Below, piece by piece: positions 1,814 to 18,822 of a stretch of DNA of 64,000 nt (positions within the stretch are counted from its first letter, which is position 1; each line of letters begins with the position of its first letter). The DNA lies in contig CM000153.2 of assembly GCA_000004695.1 (NCBI GenBank), positions 1,728,001 to 1,792,000 of the forward strand, read 5' to 3'. A program made the translations under genes and the position numbers. Origin of the DNA: Dictyostelium discoideum (taxonomy: Eukaryota). Below the pieces are notes generated by a model that saw only the letters and a list, made by a program, of their open reading frames with translations, made no database searches and was not told where the DNA came from.

Positions 1814-2224
1814 TTATTGTTTTGAAATGTATTCCATTAAGAATTTGTAATCGTCAGATTCTTTACCGAAAGTCTTGATGACTAAGGTTGAACAAGCAAC
1901 AACTTTACGAGCAGCAAGATCTTTGTCTAATTTGCAGAGACCAGCCCATTCACCTAAAGCTTTGTTATCTGGAACTTCAATTAATGGGATGTTGTGTTCG
2001 GTGGCGAGGGCTTTAACTAAACGAACAAAGTTTGGTTCGTCACAGTTTGAAGCTAAGACACATAAACGAGCAGTACGTTTGTCGAGGGCTTTGACGGTTT
2101 CATGGAGACCACGAGCAACACCTTGGACGGCTAAAGATTCTTTGATAACCTTTTGGAGGGCAACCATTGGGTCAGTGTTTTTTTCTAATGGGTTAGCGGC
2201 AATAACTGGGGCATCTCCTTCCAT
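1814..2224 (-). CDS. rps12: 40S ribosomal protein S12 (eS12), single exon
   Basis: 136-aa ORF. The translation ([102 protein letters not shown]) aligns along its full length with eukaryotic eS12 (human RPS12 has [24 protein letters not shown] and [28 protein letters not shown]). ATG at 2224..2222. Confidence 0.92.
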   Translation of the reverse strand: [136 protein letters not shown]

Positions 2225-5960: not shown

Positions 5961-6331
5961 ATGGCAGAATTAACAAATCATTTTAATAAAGTTAATGAAC
6001 TTTTAAATGATTGGGATGGAGTTGGATTATCACATGAATTATCAATGACAGAATTAATTACCTCAATTTTAAATTCAATAAATCATAATAGTCATAGTGG
6101 TATGAGTAATCAAAAGAAACAACAAATACAAGCAAAAGTTAATCAAATTAAAAAGACAGATTTAGTTGTTAAAAGACAACAAGATATAGATACATTATGT
6201 GCAAATAAAATTCAACACAACTATAATGAAATCGTTGCATATCGTTTAAGATCAATTTCATCATTATTAGATTCAAAATATTATGATGCATTTAGATATT
6301 TAATTGAAGCTATAAAGTAAGTAATAATAAT

Positions 6332-6373
<42 letters not shown>

Positions 6374-7439
6374 TTATTTAAAATTTCATATTAAAATTAT
6401 TTATTTATTTATATTTATTTATTTAGTTCATTTGTTAAAGTATTTGAATTATGGTCACAAAATATATTATGGAGATTATCATTAGATTTACGTTTAATGG
6501 CAGAATTGGCAACTTTAAATGTTGGTAGTAATGATAGTAATAATAGTAATAATAATGTTACGATTGATTATTTTGAAGAAGCATCAAGAACATTATTAAG
6601 TAAATGTTTTCAAGCAGCAAATGCTGATAGAACTCCAAATTTAGCAGAATCAAAAAAGAATGCAGCATTAGGAGTTGTAAACCAATTATTTCAAATTTAT
6701 TTTAAAATTAATAATCTTAAACTTTGTAAAAATTTAATTAAAACTATGGAATCACCTGGTTTCCCTACATTAGAGAGTTATCCTTTAAATCAAGTTATCA
6801 CATATCGTTTCTTTAATGGTCGTTTATCAGTTTTCAATGGTCAATATAAAAAAGCACAAGAAGAATTATTATATGCATTTAATAAATGTCCAAATGATTC
6901 AATTAAAAATAAAAGGTAAAAAAAGAACATAAAAACATATAAATATACATATACATATATACTAATTATTTTTTTTTTTTTTTTTTTTAAGATTAATATT
7001 ATTATTTTTAGTACCAATGCAATTAGAACAATGTAAATTCCCAAAGAAATCATTATTAGAGAAATTTAAGTTAACTCAATTCATTGATATTGTTCAATCT
7101 ATAAAAAGTGGTAATATTAAACAATTTAATGAATGTTTGTCAACTCATCAAAACTTTTTCATTTCAAAAGGTATCTATTTGATTTTAGAAAAATTGAAAA
7201 TTATTGTCTATAGAAATCTATTTAAAAAGGTACATTTAATTACAACTGGTCAAAGAATTCCAATTGGTAATTTCGTTTCCGCTTTGAAATGGATGGAAAA
7301 TGATGCTATCGATATCGATGAAACTGAATGTATTCTATCAAATTTAATTTATAATGGTTATCTTAAAGGTTATATCTCTCATAAAGTTGCTCTTGTTGTC
7401 TCTCCAACAAATCCTTTCCCAAAATTACCTTTAAATTAA
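5961..7439 (+). CDS. PCI-domain protein PCID2 / CSN12 / Thp1-like (TREX-2 and CSN12 family); join(5961..6316,6427..6915,6992..7439)
   Basis: The three track ORFs (5961, 6497, 7017) are exons of one gene. They are joined by donor gtaagt at 6317 / acceptor tttag at 6426, and donor gtaaaaaaag at 6916 / acceptor aag at 6991. The spliced protein aligns with human PCID2: GVVNQLFQIYFKINNLKLCKNLIKTM vs [44 protein letters not shown] vs [40 protein letters not shown] vs [51 protein letters not shown] vs [28 protein letters not shown]. Confidence 0.85.
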
Positions 7440-7658
7440 AAACTGAAAAAAAATAAAAAAAATAAAAAAAAATAAAAATAAAAATAATAACAACAAAAGA
7501 TTAAAGATTAAAAATATAACAACACCTCAAAGATTAATAAATGGCTTTTTTTTTTAAATTATTATTTTTTATTTTTTTTTTTTTTTGTTATTATTTTTTT
7601 TTTTTTTAAATTGTTTTTTTAAGATGTTTTGTGTTTGTATTTGTATTTGTTTTTTTTT

Positions 7659-7865: not shown

Positions 7866-9435
7866 TTACAAAATAACAACGATAATACTAATGTTATCGG
7901 TACTTCCTTTCTTTAATGCATGTAATAATAATTTATCACTCATCTTTTGTGCTTCAGTTTCATTTAAAATAAGGTCCACTGCATCTTGGTCACTTGTAAC
8001 ATCCCAAAGCTAAAATTTAGAAATAAAAAAAATAAAAAAAATAAAAAAAAGATTAGCAAAGAGGAGAATAAAAAAAAAAATCTATTTATATATTTTTTTT
8101 AAAAAATATTATTTTACTTACACCATCACAAGCTAAAATTAAATGAGTATGACCAGAATCTAATTTAATTGAACGTTTATATGGGTCACCAATGACATGA
8201 TCTTTCATTGAGTGATCACCAAGTGAACGGGTTACAGCGAGAATACCATTAACACGACCATTACATACAAAACCACCTGCAGCATCAATACGTTTTACTT
8301 CTTCTGGATCAGATCCTTTATGATCGTATGATAATCTTTCTGCAACTTTATTATGACTAATTTTATTATAATTATTATTATTTATAAATGTTGTTAGTAT
8401 GGAACACATGAATATATATATTGAAGAGAAAAAGAAAATAAAATGATAATTACCAAACAACTGCACGGGCATCACCAGCATTGGCAACATAAAGATATTT
8501 TTCACCATCAACTGGATTTTTTCTAATTAAGGCGGTAATAGATGTAGTACCAGAGAATTGGATTTCACTTTCATTCATTTGTTTATCGGTTAAAAGATAA
8601 CTATTTCTAAAGAGTTCTAAAATATCACCTTCTGGGGATTTATTAATTTCATCTAAAAGGTTCTGTATATTTTTTTTTTTTAAAGAAAAAAAATAAATCT
8701 TGGGTTAAATAATGTTCCAAAAAGAAAAAATAATAATAATAATAAAAAATAGAGATTTGGTGGAAATTTTTTTTTTTTTTTTTTTTTTTTTTAATAATAA
8801 TAATAACTTACAACATGAAGAGTTTTAGCAGTGAATTCTACAGCACCTCTACCACCATGACCATCATAAATTGCAAAATAACCTTGGTTTGCATCACCAC
8901 CAAAGCAATCGATAATAACATGTTCATCCTCCATTGTTCTTCTATAACGTGCATTCTTTTCAAAGGAGACACCAAAGTCACGAACTGAACGAGTCTTTGA
9001 TGATGGTTCTGTGGTGAAATGTGTAGATTGTGCTTGTTGTGGTTGAATGGTTTGATGTGCTACTTGAGGTGTTGATGGTGCATCACCAGTACCGCTATTA
9101 TATGTATCATCTGAACTACTTTCTTCACTTTTGGTGGTAGTGGTTGTGTTATTTGATTCTTTTGGTGGTGTATTATTATTATTGTTGTTACTATTATTAT
9201 TATTAGTAGTATCATTATTATTATTATTATTTATATTTTCTTTTTCTTTTTCTTTCTCTTTATTATCATCTGCTGTATTTTTGTTTTCTTTATTTTTATC
9301 TATTGAAACTTCTAAATTTTTGTCTGCTGTAATCTCTGTTGCCTTGGTTGTATCTACAGTGTCATTGTTATGAGTTATGGTTTCATCTTTAATATCGCTT
9401 GATGAATCGATCATATCTGTATTTGTTGTGCTCAT
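7866..9435 (-). CDS. Protein phosphatase 2C (PPM family) with an Asn/Thr-rich N-terminal extension; complement(join(7866..8009,8122..8356,8454..8662,8812..9435))
   Basis: Exon 1 is track ORF 8791..9435 and ends ...RRTMEDEHVIID...YFAIYDGHGGRGAVEFTAKTLHV, followed by gtaagt. Exon 2 (not in the track because it has no Met) reads NLLDEINKSPEGDILELFRNSYLLTDKQMNESEIQFSGTTSITALIRKNPVDGEKYLYVANAGDARAVV. Exon 3 (track ORF 8086..8511 frame) reads CHNKVAERLSYDHKGSDPEEVKRIDAAGGFVCNGRVNGILAVTRSLGDHSMKDHVIGDPYKRSIKLDSGHTHLILACDG, followed by gtaagt. Exon 4 reads LWDVTSDQDAVDLILNETEAQKMSDKLLLHALKKGSTDNISIIVVIL*. These carry the canonical PP2C motifs (YDGHGG, ANAGDSRAV-like, LAVTRSLGD, ACDGLWDV, STDNISIIVV). 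Confidence 0.85.
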
Positions 9436-9562
9436 TGTATATTTTTTTTATTTTTTTGATGTAGTTGGAGTTTTTGATTTGTTTTTTGATCTAGTGATAT
9501 AAAATAAAAATCATATCACAATAAAAAATTTAAAAAAAAATAAAAAATAAAAAAAAAAAAAA

Positions 9563-9594
<32 letters not shown>

Positions 9595-9753
9595 TTTTAA
9601 TTATTTTTAAAAAAAAAAAAAGAAAAAAAAAAAAAAAAAAAGAAAAAAAATTTGATCAAAGTTAAATAATTGTAATTTTAAATTTCTATTAATATGTATT
9701 TTTTTATGTAATATTATTATTATTATTATTATTATTATTTTTTTTATTTTTTT

Positions 9754-9787
<34 letters not shown>

Positions 9788-10011
9788 GTGTAAATTAATT
9801 TTAATTACCTTTTTTTTTTTTCGGTGTGGTACGATTTTTGTTGGGATTTTTTTTTATTTTTTTTTATTTATTTTTTTTTTATTATATACAATGACAAATG
9901 GTCAATATATTCTAAAATAAAAATCTAATTGTTTTGTTGGGAATGATTGTGGTTTAAAACCCCGGGTTTTAAAAAAGAATTGATATAATAAATTGAGTTT
10001 TAAAATTATTT

Positions 10012-10052
<41 letters not shown>

Positions 10053-10200
10053 AAAAATTTGAAAAATTTGGAAAAAAAAAAAAAAAAAAAAAAAATATTT
10101 TTTTATTTTTTTTTTATTTTATTTTTTAAATGTTAATGGCGCGCTCAATATGATTGTTAGAGATTGATATAATAAAGAATATTTTTTGATCTTTTATGGT

Positions 10201-10232
<32 letters not shown>

Positions 10233-10246
10233 CCAAATTTTTTTCC

Positions 10247-10280
<34 letters not shown>

Positions 10281-10337
10281 CCCAAATTTCCTTTCTAAAT
10301 CAAAGGGAAATGAGATTATATTAATCTTCCAAACCCA

Positions 10338-10372
<35 letters not shown>

Positions 10373-11451
10373 ATAATTATTTGTGTTGGTGTTCTAAATT
10401 TTTCTTTTAATTCAAGAACGAGTTATTTGGTGATTTATTTTGTGTTTGGGAAAAAAAAAAAAAAAAAATTAAAAAATAAAAAAAAAATTAAAAAATAAAA
10501 AAAATCTGAGAAAAATCCTGATCAAATAATTGTGGTCGCACTTCCATTTATTAAAAATATAAAATTTAATTTATTATCCGAATGAAAATAAAAATAAATA
10601 AATATAAAAATAAAAATAAAAATAAAAATAAAAATAAAAATAAAAATAAAAATAAAAATAAAAATAAATAATAAAAATAAAAATAAACCTTTTTTTTTTT
10701 TCTTTATTTTTTATTTTTCATTTTTTATTTTTTTAACTAATATTATTTTATTTTTCTCAATTTTGATTCCAGAATTTTTATTTTTTTATATTTGAATTTT
10801 GATTGAATTATAATTCTAAAAATTAGATATTAAAAAAAAAAAAAAAAAATATAGTTTTATTTTATAACTTTTCCCTTTTCCTTTTTTTAATTTTTTTTTT
10901 TTTAAATCTCAAACTTAAATATTTAAAAATATTATTTCTTATTTTCAATTTAATTTAATTTATTGTTTTTTTTTTGAATAATTTTGATGTTATCTACAAT
11001 ATGAAAAAATATGAATAAATTTTTATTTTAATAAATCATCACGTGGATTTTTCCCACATGAGTGAGAAAAGTATAATTATAAATTTTATTATACATAATT
11101 ATTATTAATTACATATATATCTTACAATAATTGTATTTACACAATTATTATTATACAACAGAAAATAGCCACTTTTATTATAATTTAATTTAATATTTAA
11201 TAATTTAATACTTAACTAACTTTTTTTTTCCGTTAATTTATTCTTCGAAAACAATGGGTTGTGGGGGAAATAAAATTAAAAATAATGTGGTGTGAGTGGG
11301 GTTTGAATTTTATTTCATCTTTCCATACACCAACACATTCATAGTTTCCTTATATTGTAAAAATCATTCAAGTTTGCCCACTTTTTGTAATTCATATGAA
11401 AATATTTATATAAAATATAAAATTAATTGAAAGTGCCCAAATTTTGAATAA

Positions 11452-11533
11452 TTTTGACAATATCCAAATTCTAAATTAATTAATTAATTAAGATTTTGAC
11501 ATTCTCCAATATCTGAATTAATTAATTAATTAG
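11452..11533. repeat. Two tandem copies of a roughly 41-bp unit (ttttgaca[at]t[ac]tccaa[at]t[tc]ctaaattaattaattaatta[ag])
   Basis: Copy 1 is 11452..11492 and copy 2 is 11493..11533. A related shorter pair (aagtttgcccactttttgtaatt / aagtgcccaaattttgaataatt) lies just upstream at about 11370..11450. Confidence 0.7.
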
Positions 11534-11725
11534 TTAATTTTTTTTGTTTTTTTTTATTTATTTTTTATGATTTTAAAAATATTTTATTTTTTGATTATAA
11601 AAAGGATTCTATTTTTTTATTAAAAAAAATTCAAAAAAGGAATATAGTTTAAAAAAGTAAATAAATAAATAAATATTTAACTAAAACTTTCAAAAATATA
11701 TATATATTAATAGTTTTTTTTTTAA

Positions 11726-11965
11726 AAATTAAAAAAGATAAAAAAATTTAAAATAAAAATAATCAGGTTAAAAGTTTTAATTGCCATTTTAGTGATTCTC
11801 TCATTACTTTCGAATTTAAATGCTGAAAATGCAATTAGTGGTGGAAGTGATCTTTCCTGTTTGATTAAATGTATGGGCTCAGAATGTTTAAAACCAACAA
11901 AGATAAATGACCCATTGTGTAACGCATATTCAAAAAAAAGTAAAAATCAATGCATTAGAAATTAA
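11726..11965 (+). other. Open frame with no ATG start, encoding a signal-peptide-like segment plus a small cysteine-rich peptide (KIKIIRLKVLIAILVILSLLSNLNA|ENAISGGSDLSCLIKCMGSECLKPTKINDPLCNAYSKKSKNQCIRN*); candidate unannotated small secreted protein or terminal exon
   Basis: The frame is open from 11726 to the stop at 11963..11965. There is no in-frame ATG before the hydrophobic segment, and the nearest upstream ATG (11567) hits a stop. The hydrophobic stretch followed by LNA-EN looks like a signal-peptidase site. There are 8 Cys in 45 residues. Confidence 0.3.
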
Positions 11966-12270
11966 TAAACTTGTTATCAAATTTATTATTAATTATAATT
12001 AATTATTATAATTTTTCCCCAGTATTTGAAATTTATCTCTCTTAAAATTTTTAATCATCAAAAAATTGTCTAAAATGATAAACTATCTTTTTTTTTTAAA
12101 AAATCTTATTTTTATACATTTTTTTTTTTTTTTTGTATTTATTTTTTTATTTATTTAATTATTTGTTTGTTTATTGATTTTTCCTTTTTAAAATTTTTTT
12201 TTAAAAAAATTAAAAATAATAAGACAAATAATTTCACCATTACTTTTATTAATATTATTAATTAATTTTT

Positions 12271-12907
12271 CAAGTGCATATCAAAAATTATATATTTCAT
12301 TCCTTATGAAAGTCCAGAGTGTAGTGGAAATCCATCAGGTATTGGGTATGGCGGTTTAGTTGATACTTGTTTTACTCAATTAAATTAATATTGTTTTTAA
12401 ATTTAAATTTAATGATTGTCCAAATCCAACATCATGTTGTCCGGGTTATGGTATTTGTGAGGGTTTTAAAAGTGGTAGTGATAGTGGTAGTGGTAGTGGT
12501 AGTGGTGGTGAAAGTGGTAGTGGTAGAGATAGTAGTAGTGGTAGTAAGGAACAAATTTCAACTACTGGACCTCTAACCAGAGGATTTACAATTTCAGGTA
12601 CAGGTGGTACAGATTCAGTTCCAATTGATGCAAGCACAAATGTTCTCTGTCAACAAGGTGAACATTGTCAAGTTGATCAAGATGGAAGAGCACATTGTTA
12701 TTTTAATATTGAATCAATTGGCACACTTCCATTAGGTTCTTTAAATGTGGTTTGTCAACCACATCAACATTGTGAAATTGATAAAAATTCAGGTTTAGCT
12801 AATTGTGTATTAGATATTAATCCAATCCATGGATTCACTACAATCGATGCATCTTCAACAGTTGCTGGATCATCTTTAACAACAACTGGTGGTGCCAGTA
12901 CAAAATG
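12271..12907 (+). other. Two adjacent open frames without ATG encoding a Cys/Gly/Ser-rich secreted-type protein (frame A 12271..12385: ...PYESPECSGNPSGIGYGGLVDTCFTQLN*; frame B 12372..12907: ...NDCPNPTSCCPGYGICEGFKSGSDSGSGSGSGG...TNVLCQQGEHCQVDQDGRAHCYFNIESIGTLPLGS LNVVCQPHQHCEIDKNSGLANCVLDINPIHGF...TTGGASTK*); gene structure unresolved, possibly a pseudogene or a gene with a non-canonical join
   Basis: Frame B is missing from the ORF track because it has no Met. It contains two roughly 35-aa Cys-spaced repeats (C-x5/6-C-x6/7-C) and a (GSGSGS) linker. No AG dinucleotide exists between 12386 and 12468 to join frame A to frame B in phase, so a simple two-exon model fails. Confidence 0.3.
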
Positions 12908-13078
12908 AATAATAAATAATTAAATTCTAACAATAATAATAATAATAATTATTAGACTTTGATTAACCAAAAAAAAAAAAATTCGTAAAACAGAATGGTT
13001 ACATTTTTTATATTTTATATCATTTGGTGTATTTCAGGGTGTTCTATTTTCACGCTAATAGAAAATAAAATTAGATAA

Positions 13079-13119
<41 letters not shown>

Positions 13120-13476
13120 AAATTTGAATGTTTTTAACAATATTTCAATTTTTTTATTTTCATTTTCACCTTTTTTTTTTATTTTTTTATTTTTTTATTT
13201 TTTTTTTTCATTTTCATTAAATTTTTTTTTTTAATTATTTATTTAAATAAAAAAAAACATATACAATATATTAATTATATTATATATAATATATATATAT
13301 ATATATAATACGACCTTTGCTGTTTATATGAACATTAGATAGATAAATAGATAAACAATCACACACATATACATATATATATAAATCTCGAAAAATAGAT
13401 AAGTAAACAAAGTAGAAGAAAAAGAAGAAGAAGAAATATAAATATAAATTTCAAAAAAAAAAAAACAAAATCAAAC

Positions 13477-14568
13477 ATGGCAACGGAATCATCAAGAGAG
13501 TTAATGATCTCTTTGTTGAATGGTGCAAATAGTTCAGATAAAGATAGATCCGACCTTTTAGCAAGTTCATATGAACTTATTTTCCATAAAGAACCGATTC
13601 TATTGGATGAATTTTATAATAGTTTTGTTGAATTTGCATTAGATCGATCACAAGCAATCAAAAAACAAATTATACCATACATAGAATCAATTTGTAAAAA
13701 GTATCCAAAATGTAAATATAATCAAAATTTAATTTAAATCTTTATCATTTATATATATCATTTCATTTTCATTGCCCCACTTTTCCTAACACATATTCAT
13801 TGTCCTTCCCCTCCCCCTTCACTTTTGTATACAAATCATTAATCAAGTTTTAAGTAATAGCGAAGCAAATTTGAAAATATTATTAAATAGTGATAATAAA
13901 GCAATTGTAAAAAGAGTAATTTTATGTGTAACGAATTTAATTAGATCAACATTATCATTTTTGTAAGTGGATTAAAAATATGGTTTAATTTTAGGTTGCA
14001 CCCAATTATCAAACCCAATATATATATTATAATTTATACATTAGAATCTAATTTTAATTTTTTTAATAGATTACAACCTCAATCAAATTCAATAAATCAT
14101 GAGCAATTAATCAATATTTGGAATTCATTTAATTTTCTTAGAGGTTATATTGTAAATTTAAGTGCGTCAACAGAGGATGATTCAATAAAAACAAATGCAT
14201 ATAAAATGTTTGAAATTTTAATTTTATCATTTTCATCTCCTGGTGAATATAAGGTATGTACACCACCTGATTCATTATCATCATCATTCATTATTATATT
14301 GAAAAACTAATTCTCATACACACACACACATATGCATATATCTCATGTCTAGACAACGAAGAAATATAAATCTGATGAAGAATTTTCATTGGATAGAGTA
14401 CCATTTGATCATTCTATAATATCAAAACAATTATTACAAAAAGATTGCGAAGATTATTTAAATATTTTATTAGATGCAGCAAGAGATTTGAATAATATGT
14501 AAGAAATTATTTACAATTTACACATATAGAGATTATTTCTTCATTTTAAAAAAATCAATCAACCATAA

Positions 14569-14611
<43 letters not shown>

Positions 14612-15929
14612 CAATGAATATGTAATTACATAATGTTGATGATGATAATGATGATAATGATGATAATGATGATAATGATGATAATGATGATAATGATGAT
14701 AATGATGATAACGATGATGAATTTTGAAAGGAAATGAACTTGGAAATAGATTTTAATATTATTTTTTTATTTTTTTATTTATTTATTTTTTAATTTTTTT
14801 TTTATTATTATTTTGTGTTAGGACTAGCCAAAATATAATGATAATTGTAACATCATTAACGACAATAGCAAAACAAAGATTTTCAATGATTTCAAGGATT
14901 GTACCAATACTGTGTTCATGTCCGAATTTAATACCAGTTTTTCCAATAGTACAACAAGAAAGCGTTAGACATTCATTAAAAGTTTCATTATTATCAATAA
15001 TTCGTATAAAGAGAAAAGAACTATTATCACCATTCATTTCAGATTTAATTCAAGCATGTTCAAAAATTGATTCAAAAGATGCTGCTGATGAAGCTGCAAG
15101 ATGGTTTTATCATGATGAACCTGATAAAAAAGTAAATATAAATATAATTAATTATTAATTAAACTAAAATATACCCCTCCCCTTATTCAAATAACTAATT
15201 TTCCCAAAAATAAATTTCAAAAAAAGAAACGACATAACGAAGGTGGTCATGAATCTCATAAAAAAAAATCAAAGGTTGAACATGTTTATGGTGTTAATGA
15301 TAATGTAATAGAAAATAATAAAAACATAAAAAATAATCATAATAACGATAGTAATAATAATAATAACAACAACAATAATTTTAGTAACAATTTTAATAAT
15401 TTAAATAATAATTTTAATACCGGTTTTAATAATAATAATAATAATAACAATAATAATTTTAATAACAATAATTTTAATGAAATTAATAAGAATAATAATA
15501 ATATGTACAGTTCAAACTTTATTGAGAAACCAGGTTTAATTATTGATGATGAAACTCAAGCAAAGATTTTGTAAGTTTGCAATAAATGTATATAAAAAAA
15601 AAAAAAAAGGTAATTGGATGCATAAGTGTATTAATTTATATTTATATATATACATATTTATTTAAATAATTTAGAGCATCTATTGAACATCTTAGTCCAG
15701 AATTTGTAAGAGAACTTGTTATTGAAAATATGAGTCATGTTCCTTTGATTAGTTTATTACAAGGAATACCGTTTAATCAACAAACTAAAGAGTTATTTAA
15801 ATTTGTAGATTCTTATCAAAATAAACAGATTAAACCAATTCATTTCATAAGTCCATTAACACAACCAAATCCATTACAATCTATAAACAATACAAATTTA
15901 CCTCAATATCCTTCACCACCTTTAAAACC

Positions 15930-15984
<55 letters not shown>

Positions 15985-17783
15985 CCTCAACAAAATTCAC
16001 CACAAAATCAACCAACACCTTTCATATTATCACCACCAGTAAACAAATCTTTTAAACCACCACCATCATCCCAACAACCATCACCACCAATACTTCAACA
16101 ACAATCACCACCACAACAACCACCACAACAACTACCACCACAAATACCTCTACAACCACCACAACAATCAACACCACCAATTGTAGAAACTCAAATTAAA
16201 GTTAAAAAGGAAGAAGATAGCGATGACGAAGATGAAGAAAAACAACTACAAGAAGAAGAAGATGAAGATTTATTCTCAAAAGAAGCAATGGAAGAAGAAG
16301 AAGAAGATGATGAAGTTGATAAAATAATTAAAAAAGAAAATGAACAACAACAATTAAAAGAGAAAATGGAAAATTCAAATTCTATTAGTTCTTCATTATT
16401 TGGTGGTGGTGGTGGTGATAATAGTAACGGTAAGAGTGATGTTATACCATCATTTACACCAAGACCAACATTTAAAGCACCACCACTTTCAAAAGAGAAA
16501 CAAAAACATGTTGGGGAGAGTGCATTGGTTAGAATTAAAATATCAGAACCTGGTGTCATGGTTTGCGGTAAACATGATCTTTGGACTTCATTATTATCTC
16601 GTATACTTTCAATTAGACCCGATCAAGAAGAATTACAAGATCAATTTATAAAATTTATCACTCAAGATTTTAAAAATCATAGAGAATTAGCGCTTCAATG
16701 GTTATTCAATGAATTATATATTGCAAAACAAATTACACCAACAACAACTAAAAATCTTAATCCTGAATTAGAAAATAATAATAATAATAATAATAATGAA
16801 AATAATGAAAATAATGATAATTCAACCACTGAAGCATCAACAACAACAAATAAAAATAAAAAAGAACCAAATATGAAAAGATATTCAACTTTATTAAAAA
16901 AAATGATAAAACAAATGAGAAGTCATTTCCCAATTAAAGATACAACTATCGGATCATTTATATTAGATTTACCATTTATAACCAATCAATTATTACATTC
17001 TATAAATTGTAAGATTGTTGCTGAATCTCAAAGTTTAATTTATACAAGTGCAACTTGGGATATTAATAAAGTATTTTCAAATGAACATAATCAAATACCA
17101 ATTGCAAATGTTACAGCAAGTATAAAAGATCATCAAATTGATGAAAATGGTAATCAAATACCATTGACAGATGATGATATGGACGCAGCAGCAGCATCAT
17201 CATCACCATTACCTATTGATCCAAAGATATTACAAGATAAAGAGAATGAATGGTTACCAATTGGGTTGGGTATATTGAGAGATTTAATCATTTGGAGACC
17301 AAATGTACGTGAATATTGTATAAATAGTCTTTTAAAATTTTCAATTTCAAATGATGATTCAGTTCGTTCACCAACAATTAATTTAATTGCAAATCAAATC
17401 TATTCAAAACAATCTGCTACAGAACCAATTCAATTATTTGCAAAGGAACAAATCATTCATTTAATTGCAATCAAAGATATCGAAGATGAAATGGAAATTC
17501 AAAAATCAAAAGATGCTGCCATCATCTATAGTGAATTAATGAATCAAGATAATAATATCGATGATAATGCTATTAAAATTGAAGAAACTCAATCAATTGA
17601 AGATAAAAAAAAACATGAAGAATTTGAAAAAAATAAACAAAATCAAAAAGAAGAACAAGAACAACCAATGAAACTTGATAATCTAAATGATGATTCAAAT
17701 GTAGATATTAATACCAACACCACCAACACCACCACCACTACCCCCACAACAAATACAACCACAACAACATCAACATCGACATC

Positions 17784-17814
<31 letters not shown>

Positions 17815-18822
17815 GAATTAGAACAATCAATAGTACCAAAAGTTTTAACTAAAACTAGAGTAAAAGAAATTAAAAAGTTTATAGAAACAAGAGTTTCACT
17901 TTATTTTGCATTGATTATTAAAAATCATCAATTATTAACTGACCTTTTACAATTATATCCAAAATATGATGAAAATATTCAAGAGGTTGTTAAAAGACTA
18001 ACGACATGTGTAATTAAACATATTGGACAAAGTAGTGCTTCATTGTTACAAGTGATTTCAATTTGTCCAACTGGATCAGAGGAATTAACACTTGAAATTT
18101 TGAATGCATTGGTTTTAAATGAAAAACCATCCAGTGAATTGGTTGAATCTGTAAAAACCTTACTATTGACCAATGGCGATATTAGATTCCTTTTACCAGT
18201 GCTAACGGGTTTGAAGAAAGAAGAAGTTATCTCTAGACTACCATCATTCCTATCAATGCCAAATAAAACCGATACCAATCAATTCATTAGTGTTTTAGCA
18301 TCACCAGGCTCACCATTATCCGCTTCGGAATTATTAGTTCAAATTCATTTGACACCTGATTCCTTAACTATGAAATCAATGGAAGCTATCGATTTTTGTT
18401 TAGATATGGAAGATATTTTCAAACAAGAGATTGTCGCTGCCACCATAAATCAATTGATGGCTCAGGCTCAGCTACCAAAGTTATTCATGAGAACTATCTT
18501 AAAGACCCTTCAAAAATATCCACGTCTAAAGATTTTCATCGTTGAGATTTTAGGTCGTTTAGTTGCTAGACAAGTTTGGAAGGATAAAACTTTATGGGAT
18601 GGTTTCATTCGTTGTACAAAATTGGCAAAACCAGAATCACTAGAGGTTATACTTCAATTACCACCAACTCAATTCGAAGATGCAATCAATCATGAAAAAC
18701 ATCGTGATCTCAAATCAATCATTATCAAACATTTACAATCAAGTAAAGAAAATGAAATTAGATATCCAAAACAAAATTTAAAAACTTTGAATTGGGAAAA
18801 ACATTCAACCACTTCAAAATAA
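13477..18822 (+). CDS. Symplekin (scaffold of the mRNA 3'-end cleavage/polyadenylation machinery), 7 exons; join(13477..13711,13848..13962,14070..14253,14353..14498,14822..15131,15227..15570,15675..18822)
   Basis: N-terminal exons align with the human symplekin HEAT region: IFHKEPILLDEFYNSFVEFALDRSQAIKKQIIPYIESICKKY vs [66 protein letters not shown] vs [35 protein letters not shown] vs HDISLDRIPRDH; IIVTSLTTIAKQR vs SINLTTALGSLANIARQR; LSPEFVRELVIENMSHVPLISLL vs [21 protein letters not shown]. The 1030-aa last exon ends with the Symplekin_C signature: RQVWKDKTLWDGFIRCTKLAKPESLEVILQLPPTQF vs [36 protein letters not shown]. Donors gtaaat/gtaagt/gtatgt and acceptors were located explicitly, and phases 1,2,0,2,0,2 close consistently. 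Confidence 0.85.
14565..14712 (+). repeat. Intronic microsatellites in symplekin intron 4: (CAAT)n at about 14565..14615, then about eight copies of GATGATAAT at about 14636..14712
   Basis: Directly visible: caatcaatcaatcaatcaatcaataaatcaatcaatcaatcaatgaat ... gatgataatgatgataatgatgataat... Confidence 0.9.

Follow-up and report, generated by a model that had tools for sequence, protein, structure and literature searches.

The locus described here lies between a PP2C gene (upstream, on the minus strand) and the symplekin gene (start 13477) of Dictyostelium discoideum AX4, within a window of 64,000 nucleotides that was analysed as a whole and to which all unlabelled positions refer. The reference gene DDB_G0284317, which is placed on the 5.45-Mb AX4 chromosome record, matches the region at 100%. 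A sequence-only reading had described three open frames that do not start with ATG, together with a signal-peptide-like segment, regularly spaced cysteines and two repeats of about 35 amino acids, and all of these are found in the sequence once the frame coordinates are slightly corrected. Read exactly from stop to stop, the frames extend over 11726-11962 (stop 11963-11965), 12266-12385 (stop 12386-12388) and 12384-12905 (stop 12906-12908). The third frame had been started at 12372, which is excluded by an in-frame stop at 12381-12383, downstream of that position. The overlap of the last two frames is real and does involve different frames, but it extends over just 2 nt; likewise, the statement that 12386-12468 contains no AG was nearly right, with one AG at 12460-12461 that falls within conserved coding-like sequence. 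A second signal-peptide-like segment, overlooked before, occupies 12213-12302 in the third reading frame (KIIRQIISPLLLLILLINFSSAYQKLYISF) and goes with the ESPEC... frame. Homopolymer runs occur in the region, whose sequence is AT-rich. The features that we recognize are collected in Table 1.

Table 1. Features of the locus, in window coordinates
Feature	Position	Strand	Basis or detail
D. discoideum complex-specific block, containing units A and B	10733..13003	.	synteny comparison
Newer model KAM9943037.1 (P0014, 222 aa)	11285..12908	+	exact reconstruction on the window
First open frame	11726..11962	+	stop-to-stop; reaches 39 nt upstream of the unit A ex-start codon
Unit A, pseudogene (small secreted peptide, six Cys in intact alleles)	11765..11965	+	comparison with L005, L006 and L007
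Unit B 5' part, DUF3430/Bad (PF11912) relic	12182..12385	+	blastn, Pfam, phmmer
Frameshift site in the DUF3430 relic	12290..12302	+	two overlapping tblastn HSPs to P0003
Junction of the two relics	12386..12401	+	homology to neither parent assignable; same junction in L006
Unit B 3' part, spore-coat-like relic	12402..12908	+	phmmer, blastn and tblastn to P0002
Reference model DDB_G0284317 (P0001, 128 aa; UniProt Q54PX5)	12434..12908	+	exons 12434-12450, 12539-12908
GGT/AGT (Gly/Ser) microsatellite, expanded	12474..12545	+	about 21 extra codons relative to P0002
Cys repeat 1 (S-TNVL-C-QQGEH-C-QVDQDGRAH-C)	12633..12698	+	Ser in place of the leading Cys of the 4-Cys unit
Cys repeat 2 (S-LNVV-C-QPHQH-C-EIDKNSGLAN-C)	12738..12806	+	first Cys is Ser

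Relics of three secreted-protein genes

The first frame contains unit A, whose former start codon is AGG in AX4 (11765-11767; atcAGGtta) where the wild relatives L005, L006 and L007 have an ATG (atcATGtta), and whose stop is TAA 11963-11965. The first in-frame ATG of the AX4 unit lies downstream of the signal peptide (LKVLIAILVILSLLSNLNA). AX4 also shows a specific 6-nt deletion (MG--SEC) and a Cys-to-Ser change (KRCRNQC to KKSKNQC) and is left with five cysteines versus six. The unit is intact in L005 (68 aa) and L007 (66 aa), with the spacing CX3C-x6-C-x10-C-x6-CX3C after the signal peptide, and in L006 the ATG is present but a TAG falls within the signal peptide. Calculated on about 40 synonymous sites, a small number, dN/dS is approximately 0.6-1.9 in all pairwise comparisons but one of six, the near-identical L005/L006 pair at 0.08; PCID2, a neighbouring gene, has 0.04-0.07, a contrast that may reflect decay. 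Unit A may nevertheless be a live, fast-evolving gene in lineages other than AX4, given that it is intact in two haplotypes and that its frame survives two in-frame indels. Among secreted peptides that are small and rich in disulfides, plant alpha-hairpinins have paired CX3C motifs, and the intact unit A alleles resemble them in having a signal peptide that is followed by paired CX3C. They differ in that Pfam and PDB sequence searches detected no homologue of unit A and in that the single-sequence AlphaFold2 model of the AX4 peptide, which is of low confidence (pLDDT 59.8), is not a helical hairpin.

It is very unlikely that unit A alone functions in AX4, either spliced from an upstream ATG or by non-AUG initiation. 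Such a product would retain its signal peptide, with four or five cysteines, and there are candidate ATGs at 11254 (MGCGGNKIKNNVV-, with a GTGAGT donor at 11292) and 11285 (MW-), both in frame with an acceptor at 11766/11767, yet it would be short of one of the six conserved cysteines and of two residues, with an odd Cys number. It would also need a 475-nt intron, which is long for this genome to judge by two introns of the window, of 76 and 110 nt, and would contain a block conserved among strains, and the unit has a nonsense codon in the sister strain L006 and a dN/dS of about 1. Exact look-up of the products that unit A might give after splicing, or with its ATG restored, returned no record.

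The 5' part of unit B derives from a different family. DUF3430/Bad (PF11912, CfaA_B_C) comprises dictyostelid secreted proteins, including BadA-C, that are linked to bacteriolytic activity, and its domain has about 205 positions, at least eight conserved cysteines and several Y/FxxxxC motifs (PMC7886984). The relic consists of about 33 nt of 5' flank and the first ~57 codons of such a gene, with a frame that ends at TAA 12386-12388. It matches a D. dimigraforme DUF3430 gene by blastn (L002 9968-10159, 77% nucleotide identity with the 33 nt of 5' flank included) and the DUF3430 proteins P0003 and P0005 by phmmer (57-60% identity over aa 4-58). The PF11912 match, which is obtained with the frame-corrected reconstruction only, scores 41.5 bits against a gathering cut-off of 28.6 (E 1.9e-10) and spans profile positions 3-56 of 206; a word-indexed homologue search with the reconstructed N-terminus gave no match. 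The former start codon of this relic is ATA (12219-12221) in place of ATG in AX4, L005 and L006, with a signal-peptide-like segment at 12219-12290. Two tblastn HSPs to P0003 lie in different frames (aa 16-28 at 12264-12302, aa 26-54 at 12290-12376), with the signal peptide and KLYISF read in one frame and (F)IPYESPECSG... in the next. L005 and L006 depart from AX4 by 2 nt in the length of this region, and all three are out of frame relative to P0003. The relic is like the DUF3430 family in having a signal peptide that is followed by the KLYISF-PYES-C-G-PSGIGYGGL-DTCF N-terminal motif, but its ATA start and its domain lie in different frames, so that there is no Met-initiated in-frame signal peptide, and it keeps only two of the family's at least eight conserved cysteines and one YxxxxC motif (YESPEC) before it diverges and stops at 12386, after codon ~57. 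It is a fragment that could not fold as a family member.

The closest sequence to the 3' part of unit B is a D. citrinum hypothetical protein, KAN0034724.1 (P0002, 436 aa), which has a Pfam Dicty_spore_N domain at aa 20-133 (E 1.5e-17) and is encoded at a non-syntenic locus. The relic corresponds to P0002 aa 114-258, ends at TGA 12906-12908, contains zero Met codons, and lies in a long frame of 174 stop-free codons at 36% GC that matches P0002 by phmmer (E 1.9e-68) and by tblastn (E 1.8e-62, 67% amino acid identity). Its nucleotide identity to L001 10414-10813 is 84-88%, and its dN/dS relative to P0002 is 0.32, a figure that blends a functional lineage with the relic and is no proof of relaxed constraint. 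A word-indexed homologue search with the long frame matched the reference model alone, and a PDB sequence search with P0002 found nothing significant. Dicty_spore_N was not detected by a Pfam scan of the window frame, and in the alignment only the last ~20 positions of this 115-position Cys-rich domain are kept. What the relic shares with the Dicty_spore_N spore-coat-like proteins (PF04562) is the terminal NDCPNPTSCCPG-GICEG stretch of the N-domain, along with two of the C-x4-C-x5-C-x9-C repeats. Missing relative to P0002 are the intron-bearing 5' end, the signal peptide, N-domain residues aa 20-113 and the final three to four repeats, and the 3' truncation removes ~180 codons. The Gly/Ser linker of the relic is expanded, and L006 has an (AGT)n expansion of its own at this position. 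The two 4-Cys repeats, out of about six in P0002, are clearly homologous to it, yet each is without its first Cys: PIDACTNVIC in P0002 is PIDASTNVLC in AX4, and LPLGCLNVVC in both P0002 and L006 is LPLGSLNVVC in AX4.

Decay and absence in related genomes

An assembly indel had been offered as one explanation for the broken frames, and the AT-rich sequence with its homopolymer runs would suit an AX4 reference error, near 12370-12390 or elsewhere, that breaks an intact gene. We regard this as scarcely credible, since an independent D. discoideum assembly (L003, GCA_054883475.1) is base-for-base the same as the window over 10700-13300, and at least five independent errors would be needed (two lost starts, one frameshift, and the absence of both the N-terminal domain and the C-terminal third). 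Other strains moreover have some of the lesions in common with AX4, with the ATA start and a frameshift of the DUF3430 part present in two of them. The condition of the locus also differs from strain to strain. L006 keeps aa 113-325 of the spore-coat-like part, but with stops and frameshifts; L005 has a deletion from DUF3430 codon ~35 to past the spore-coat-like relic; and L007 has lost the DUF3430 part and retains spore-coat-like aa ~79-99 alone. L013 (GCA_054859235.1) is without the whole block, yet groups with L007 inside the D. discoideum complex. The identical second assembly, these differing deletions and stops in L005, L006 and L007, and absence in L013 and three sister species together indicate that the lesions are not assembly errors and that the locus is dispensable.

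The sister species are D. citrinum, D. dimigraforme and D. firmibasis, in which the spacer between the PP2C and symplekin genes measures 1.2-1.6 kb versus ~4 kb here, and in these species, as in L013, a block of ~2.3-2.4 kb is missing at the syntenic site. Window positions 10728 and 13150 are only ~140 bp apart in the syntenic spacer of D. citrinum (L004), and positions 10732 and 13004 are separated by ~190 bp in L013; the right edge of the block falls between ~12910 and 13149, varying with the genome compared. A tblastn search of the spacers of the three sister species with unit A and with the 5' and 3' parts of unit B gave no match, and no paralogues of the units were found elsewhere in the window. 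A listing of the other open frames of the block showed what looks like low-complexity AT-rich translation, with no transposon-like or coding remnant apparent. An Rfam scan of 9500-13500 gave nothing above threshold, only sub-threshold miRNA noise.

Like other pseudogenes, whether unitary, duplicated or chimeric through deletion and fusion, these units are recognisably homologous to genes that survive intact in other places and carry lesions that rule out translation of the ancestral product, namely the loss of two start codons, a single frameshift, premature stops and truncation at both the 5' and the 3' end, and they show presence/absence and distinct lesions among close strains. They are unlike the usual case in that three secreted Cys-rich families are crowded into 1.2 kb, which is why the region looked like one odd gene. 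The sequence-only reading had considered a gene with an unusual structure, which does not hold, as the frames are the remains of three different secreted-protein genes. Its suggestion of a pseudogenised member of a Cys-rich secreted family was right as to pseudogenisation, though three unrelated families are involved and not one gene or family. Homology comparisons of the kind that it proposed give P0002, P0003 and P0005 as relatives, along with unit A of other strains, which is intact in L005 and L007. A single frameshifted gene is ruled out by the assignment of the frames to three families, and chance open frames are ruled out by the PF11912 score, the P0002 match and the conservation of unit A in complex genomes.

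Gene models drawn across the relics

That no workable splice join connects the frames agrees with the public models, which join them only by means of a 42%-GC or a 28%-GC 'intron' and a GC-AG intron. The two real introns in the window, of 76 and 110 nt, have 4-10% GC. DDB_G0284317 (MLSGLCGSKEQ...) is a deposited annotation, but the likelihood that it is the true gene is very low. Its first exon takes the conserved NPTSCCPGYG segment out of frame, the 88-nt 'intron' (12451-12538) turns out upon reconstruction to be the Gly/Ser-coding repeat at 42% GC, and its product is without a signal peptide and begins mid-domain of the parent family. Literature and supplement searches for expression of DDB_G0284317 turned up nothing, and exact look-up of P0001 and of bacterial-style ORF products gave no record.

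The newer model, KAM9943037.1, comes from a public annotation of a near-identical strain and has exons at 11285-11289, 11767-11923, 12275-12345 and 12473-12908. It would make the locus a spliced four-exon gene, in which an ATGTG exon is joined at the AG created by AGG, for a 222-aa chimeric secreted Cys-rich protein. Although its product carries a signal peptide and 12 cysteines, an even number, introns 1 and 2 are AT-rich (15% and 12% GC), and T-to-G changes specific to AX4 yield the GTGAGT donor and the CAG/G acceptor, we consider this gene improbable. Exon 1 is just 5 nt, intron 2 uses a GC donor (GCATAT), and intron 3, at 28% GC, cuts out the conserved YGGLVDTCF and NDCPNPTSCCPGYGICEG and thereby deletes the residues that are best conserved in each of the two parent families. 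L005, L006 and L007 do not share the splice sites, the block is deleted or differently broken in all other haplotypes, and the product has no record beyond one genome, Logan assemblies of public runs included. In the same annotation series an intron skirts the in-frame TAG of L006, no gene is called on the intact unit A of L005 and L007, and symplekin is split into two models in L005, L007 and L008, which suggests a frame-rescuing prediction.

There is only a slim chance that the ATG-to-AGG change of AX4, in making the CAG/G acceptor, and the T-to-G change 475 nt upstream, in making the GTGAGT donor, have produced a de novo intron that rescues the signal peptide. If true, this intron, perhaps extending as in KAM9943037.1, would constitute gene birth from the parts of three decayed genes, caught mid-event.

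Proposed history and significance of the locus

Homology to two named families, the lesions themselves, the identity of the second assembly, strain-specific decay and sister-species absence are all direct observations, and we conclude with considerable confidence that AX4 has a small gene graveyard here, not a gene of unusual structure. The ancestor of the D. discoideum complex would have had three adjacent intact secreted-protein genes. The one ancestral to unit A probably encoded a ~68-aa pre-peptide, consisting of a signal peptide and a ~47-aa mature six-Cys peptide, and its start became AGG in the AX4 lineage, with two residues and one Cys also gone. Unit B (12182-12908) is a fusion relic in which a DUF3430 5' end abuts spore-coat codons 114-258, and the two genes are presumed to have been joined when the stretch between codon ~58 of the former and codon ~113 of the latter was deleted. 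The DNA of the block now appears to drift and to be in the process of being lost through lineage-specific deletions. In neither unit is there a start codon or an uninterrupted frame, and thus the AX4 locus most likely would yield no functional protein.

On this history, DDB_G0284317 and the 222-aa model are most likely artefacts over pseudogenes, and neither should be counted as a protein in secretome, family-size or orthology analyses. The main value of the result is this annotation correction; gene decay of this ordinary kind will not surprise specialists. The analysis also brings to light a small six-Cys secreted peptide gene, apparently unannotated, which two wild genomes of the complex carry in intact form and which is dead in the laboratory reference lineage. 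The locus as a whole provides a compact case of the rapid deletion of lineage-specific secreted-protein genes, here of the Bad/DUF3430 and spore-coat-like kinds, in social amoebae.

Three open frames and two probably dead units

Three-frame translation bore out the three open frames described in the sequence-only reading, with slightly corrected coordinates (see table), as well as its observation that they lack an initiator, a usable ATG being present in 0 of 3 frames. The AT content of the window is very high. The claim that no AG lies in 12386-12468 held except for one AG at 12460-12461. Overlooked at that stage was a second signal-peptide-like segment at 12213-12302 (KIIRQIISPLLLLILLINFSSAYQKLYISF), which lies in the third frame immediately 5' of the ESPEC... 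frame. A deposited D. discoideum AX4 protein, DDB_G0284317, matches the long frame at 100% identity. As to the explanations then offered, a pseudogene is supported but with a different anatomy: three families are present in two probably dead units, a small secreted six-Cys peptide gene (unit A, 11765-11965) and a chimeric relic (unit B, 12182-12908). An assembly indel can be discarded, as GCA_054883475.1 (L003), an independent D. discoideum assembly, is identical to the window over 10700-13300.

Features of the window and of its syntenic loci
Feature	Source	Coordinates	Remarks
Open frame 1	window	11726-11962, stop 11963-11965	three-frame translation
Open frame 2	window	12266-12385, stop 12386-12388	three-frame translation
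Open frame 3	window	12384-12905, stop 12906-12908	three-frame translation
Ribosomal protein S12	window	1814-2224	synteny neighbour
PCID2 homologue	window	5961-7442	three exons; reconstruction exact to XP_638668.1
PP2C phosphatase	window	8086-9435 (minus)	synteny neighbour
Symplekin	window	13477-18822	synteny neighbour
Unit A orthologue	L005	15680-15886	intact 68-aa ORF, signal peptide, six Cys
Unit A orthologue	L007	15444-15644	intact 66-aa ORF, signal peptide, six Cys
Unit B locus	L006, D. discoideum, GCA_054859385.1		DUF3430/spore-coat junction shared with AX4; parent aa 113-325 kept with stops, deletions, frameshifts
Unit B locus	L005, D. discoideum, GCA_054859355.1		deletion from DUF3430 codon ~35 to past relic
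Unit B locus	L007, D. cf. discoideum		without DUF3430 part; only parent aa ~79-99 kept
Block 10733-13003	L013, GCA_054859235.1		entire block absent

Unit A and its surroundings

Syntenic loci were obtained via the reconstructed neighbouring PCID2 protein and its cluster members. The unit A frame starts atcATGtta in three other D. discoideum-complex genomes, and these ATG alleles encode a 66-68-aa pre-peptide in which a signal peptide precedes six Cys with the spacing CX3C-x6-C-x10-C-x6-CX3C. The AX4 start region reads atcAGGtta, and AX4 also exhibits a 6-nt deletion and KKSKNQC in place of KRCRNQC; L006 has a TAG inside the signal peptide. Neither the L005 nor the L007 assembly annotation has a gene model for the intact ORFs, the protein collection contains no identical entry, and these ORFs appear to represent an unannotated small secreted-peptide gene. 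No relatives of unit A were found in Pfam or PDB. Of six pairings, five put its dN/dS at 0.6-1.9, computed from a small number of sites, and the sixth, between the near-identical L005 and L006, stands at 0.08 (1 non-synonymous and 3 synonymous differences); the value for PCID2 is 0.04-0.07.

Upstream of unit A, a relatively GC-rich non-coding segment at 11226-11385 (…ccatacaccaacacattcatagtttccttatattgtaaaaatcattca…) is conserved across the L005, L006 and L007 haplotypes, with indel-rich flanks and no Rfam match; it may serve unit A as a promoter or enhancer, or else encode a small RNA that has escaped recognition. A short ORF at 11254-11295 (MGCGGNKIKNNVV, then stop) has an N-terminal MGC that resembles a myristoylation/palmitoylation start. 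Its ATG opens a 44-codon frame in L005, and a T-to-G change in AX4 gives rise to the TGA stop and, at the same time, to a donor-like GTGAGT; this ORF is probably non-coding because the frame is not kept in L007. At 11039-11061 an imperfect palindrome (TCACGTGGATTTTTCCCACATGA) with a CACGTG core, partly conserved in L005, L006 and L007, may be a putative transcription-factor site.

Unit B and the history of the block

When the signal peptide and the ESPEC frame are joined, this frame-joined reconstruction matches PF11912 (CfaA_B_C, formerly DUF3430) at 41.5 bits (E 1.9e-10; gathering threshold 28.6 bits), confined to profile positions 3-56 of 206. DUF3430 is a dictyostelid-specific family with signal peptides, rich in Cys and aromatics; BadA-C are among its members, which number 54 in D. 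discoideum (PMC7886984). An exhaustive phmmer search matched query aa 4-58 to the DUF3430 proteins P0003 (D. dimigraforme) and P0005 (D. discoideum), and at the DNA level window 12182-12373 aligns at 77% with a D. dimigraforme DUF3430 gene, the aligned stretch taking in 33 nt of that gene's 5' flank. ATA (12219-12221) stands where the family has its ATG, the frameshift is placed at 12290-12302 because two P0003 tblastn HSPs in different frames overlap there, and the DUF3430 part stops after ~57 codons.

The same search matched query aa 58-220 to a D. citrinum spore-coat-like protein, P0002 (KAN0034724.1, 436 aa; E 1.9e-68), in which Pfam places Dicty_spore_N at aa 20-133, with about six 4-Cys repeats C-terminal to it; window 12402-12901 is an 84-88% DNA match to the middle of its gene. 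Taken together, the Pfam, phmmer and DNA matches indicate that frames 2 and 3 are fragments from two families with no relation to each other, the junction being at 12386-12401. The spore-coat-like part begins mid-exon at parent codon 114 (the parent's single intron follows codon 19) and ends at codon 258 of 436; its Gly/Ser microsatellite is expanded, and both repeats that it keeps have the first Cys changed to Ser. The P0002 locus, flanked by dihydropyrimidine dehydrogenase and profilin, shares no synteny with the window. Synonymous divergence between relic and P0002 is 0.43, ~2x the D. discoideum-D. citrinum PCID2 value (0.20), and thus the relic is likely to descend from an older paralogue or to lie within a fast-evolving region.

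The block between the PP2C and symplekin genes is dispensable. L013, which lacks it, pairs with L007 inside the complex in a neighbour-joining tree of 1,429 PCID2 columns. No trace of either unit was found in the PP2C-symplekin spacer, 1.2-1.6 kb long, of D. citrinum (two strains), D. dimigraforme and D. firmibasis. In the simplest history that we infer, the complex ancestor would have carried three adjacent secreted-protein genes here, a deletion would then have fused the DUF3430 gene with the spore-coat-like gene, and all three would have eroded since. AX4 mismatches L005/L006 by 7-12% in 10700-13480, compared with 2.7% overall (dS 0.039) in the PCID2 gene; an old haplotype, a locally higher mutation rate or misaligned AT-rich sequence could account for this.

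A long (ATAAAA)n-type microsatellite (10590-10690) lies just left of the block, and poly-A/T tracts (13070-13120) lie at its right boundary. Similar short motifs (ATTCTAA, TTTGATTGAAT) at both edges and at the L013 empty site may represent microhomology at a deletion or insertion.

Public gene models

Translation of DDB_G0284317 (128 aa) is modelled from an ATG at 12434 that is out of frame, and the model's 88-nt intron is the Gly/Ser-coding repeat, with 42% GC. The second model, KAM9943037.1 (222 aa), was reconstructed exactly from exons 11285-11289, 11767-11923, 12275-12345 and 12473-12908. Several of its features are implausible: a first coding exon of 5 nt, an acceptor that arises from the start-codon mutation, a GC-AG intron, and a 28%-GC intron that excises the residues best conserved in each of the two families. 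That AX4-specific T-to-G changes made a working intron which rescues unit A, or a chimeric gene, would be an alternative of low probability. We read both models as probable frame-rescuing predictions, because the two introns reconstructed within the window have 4-10% GC, because in the KAM9943037.1 annotation series an intron spans the in-frame stop of L006, and because symplekin is split into two models in L005 (16819-21531), L007 (16477-21525) and L008 (14772-20180) while being one model in L003, L004 (D. citrinum) and L009, which indicates that the automated annotations are of uneven quality. Most likely, the locus is a case of ordinary gene decay and mis-annotation.
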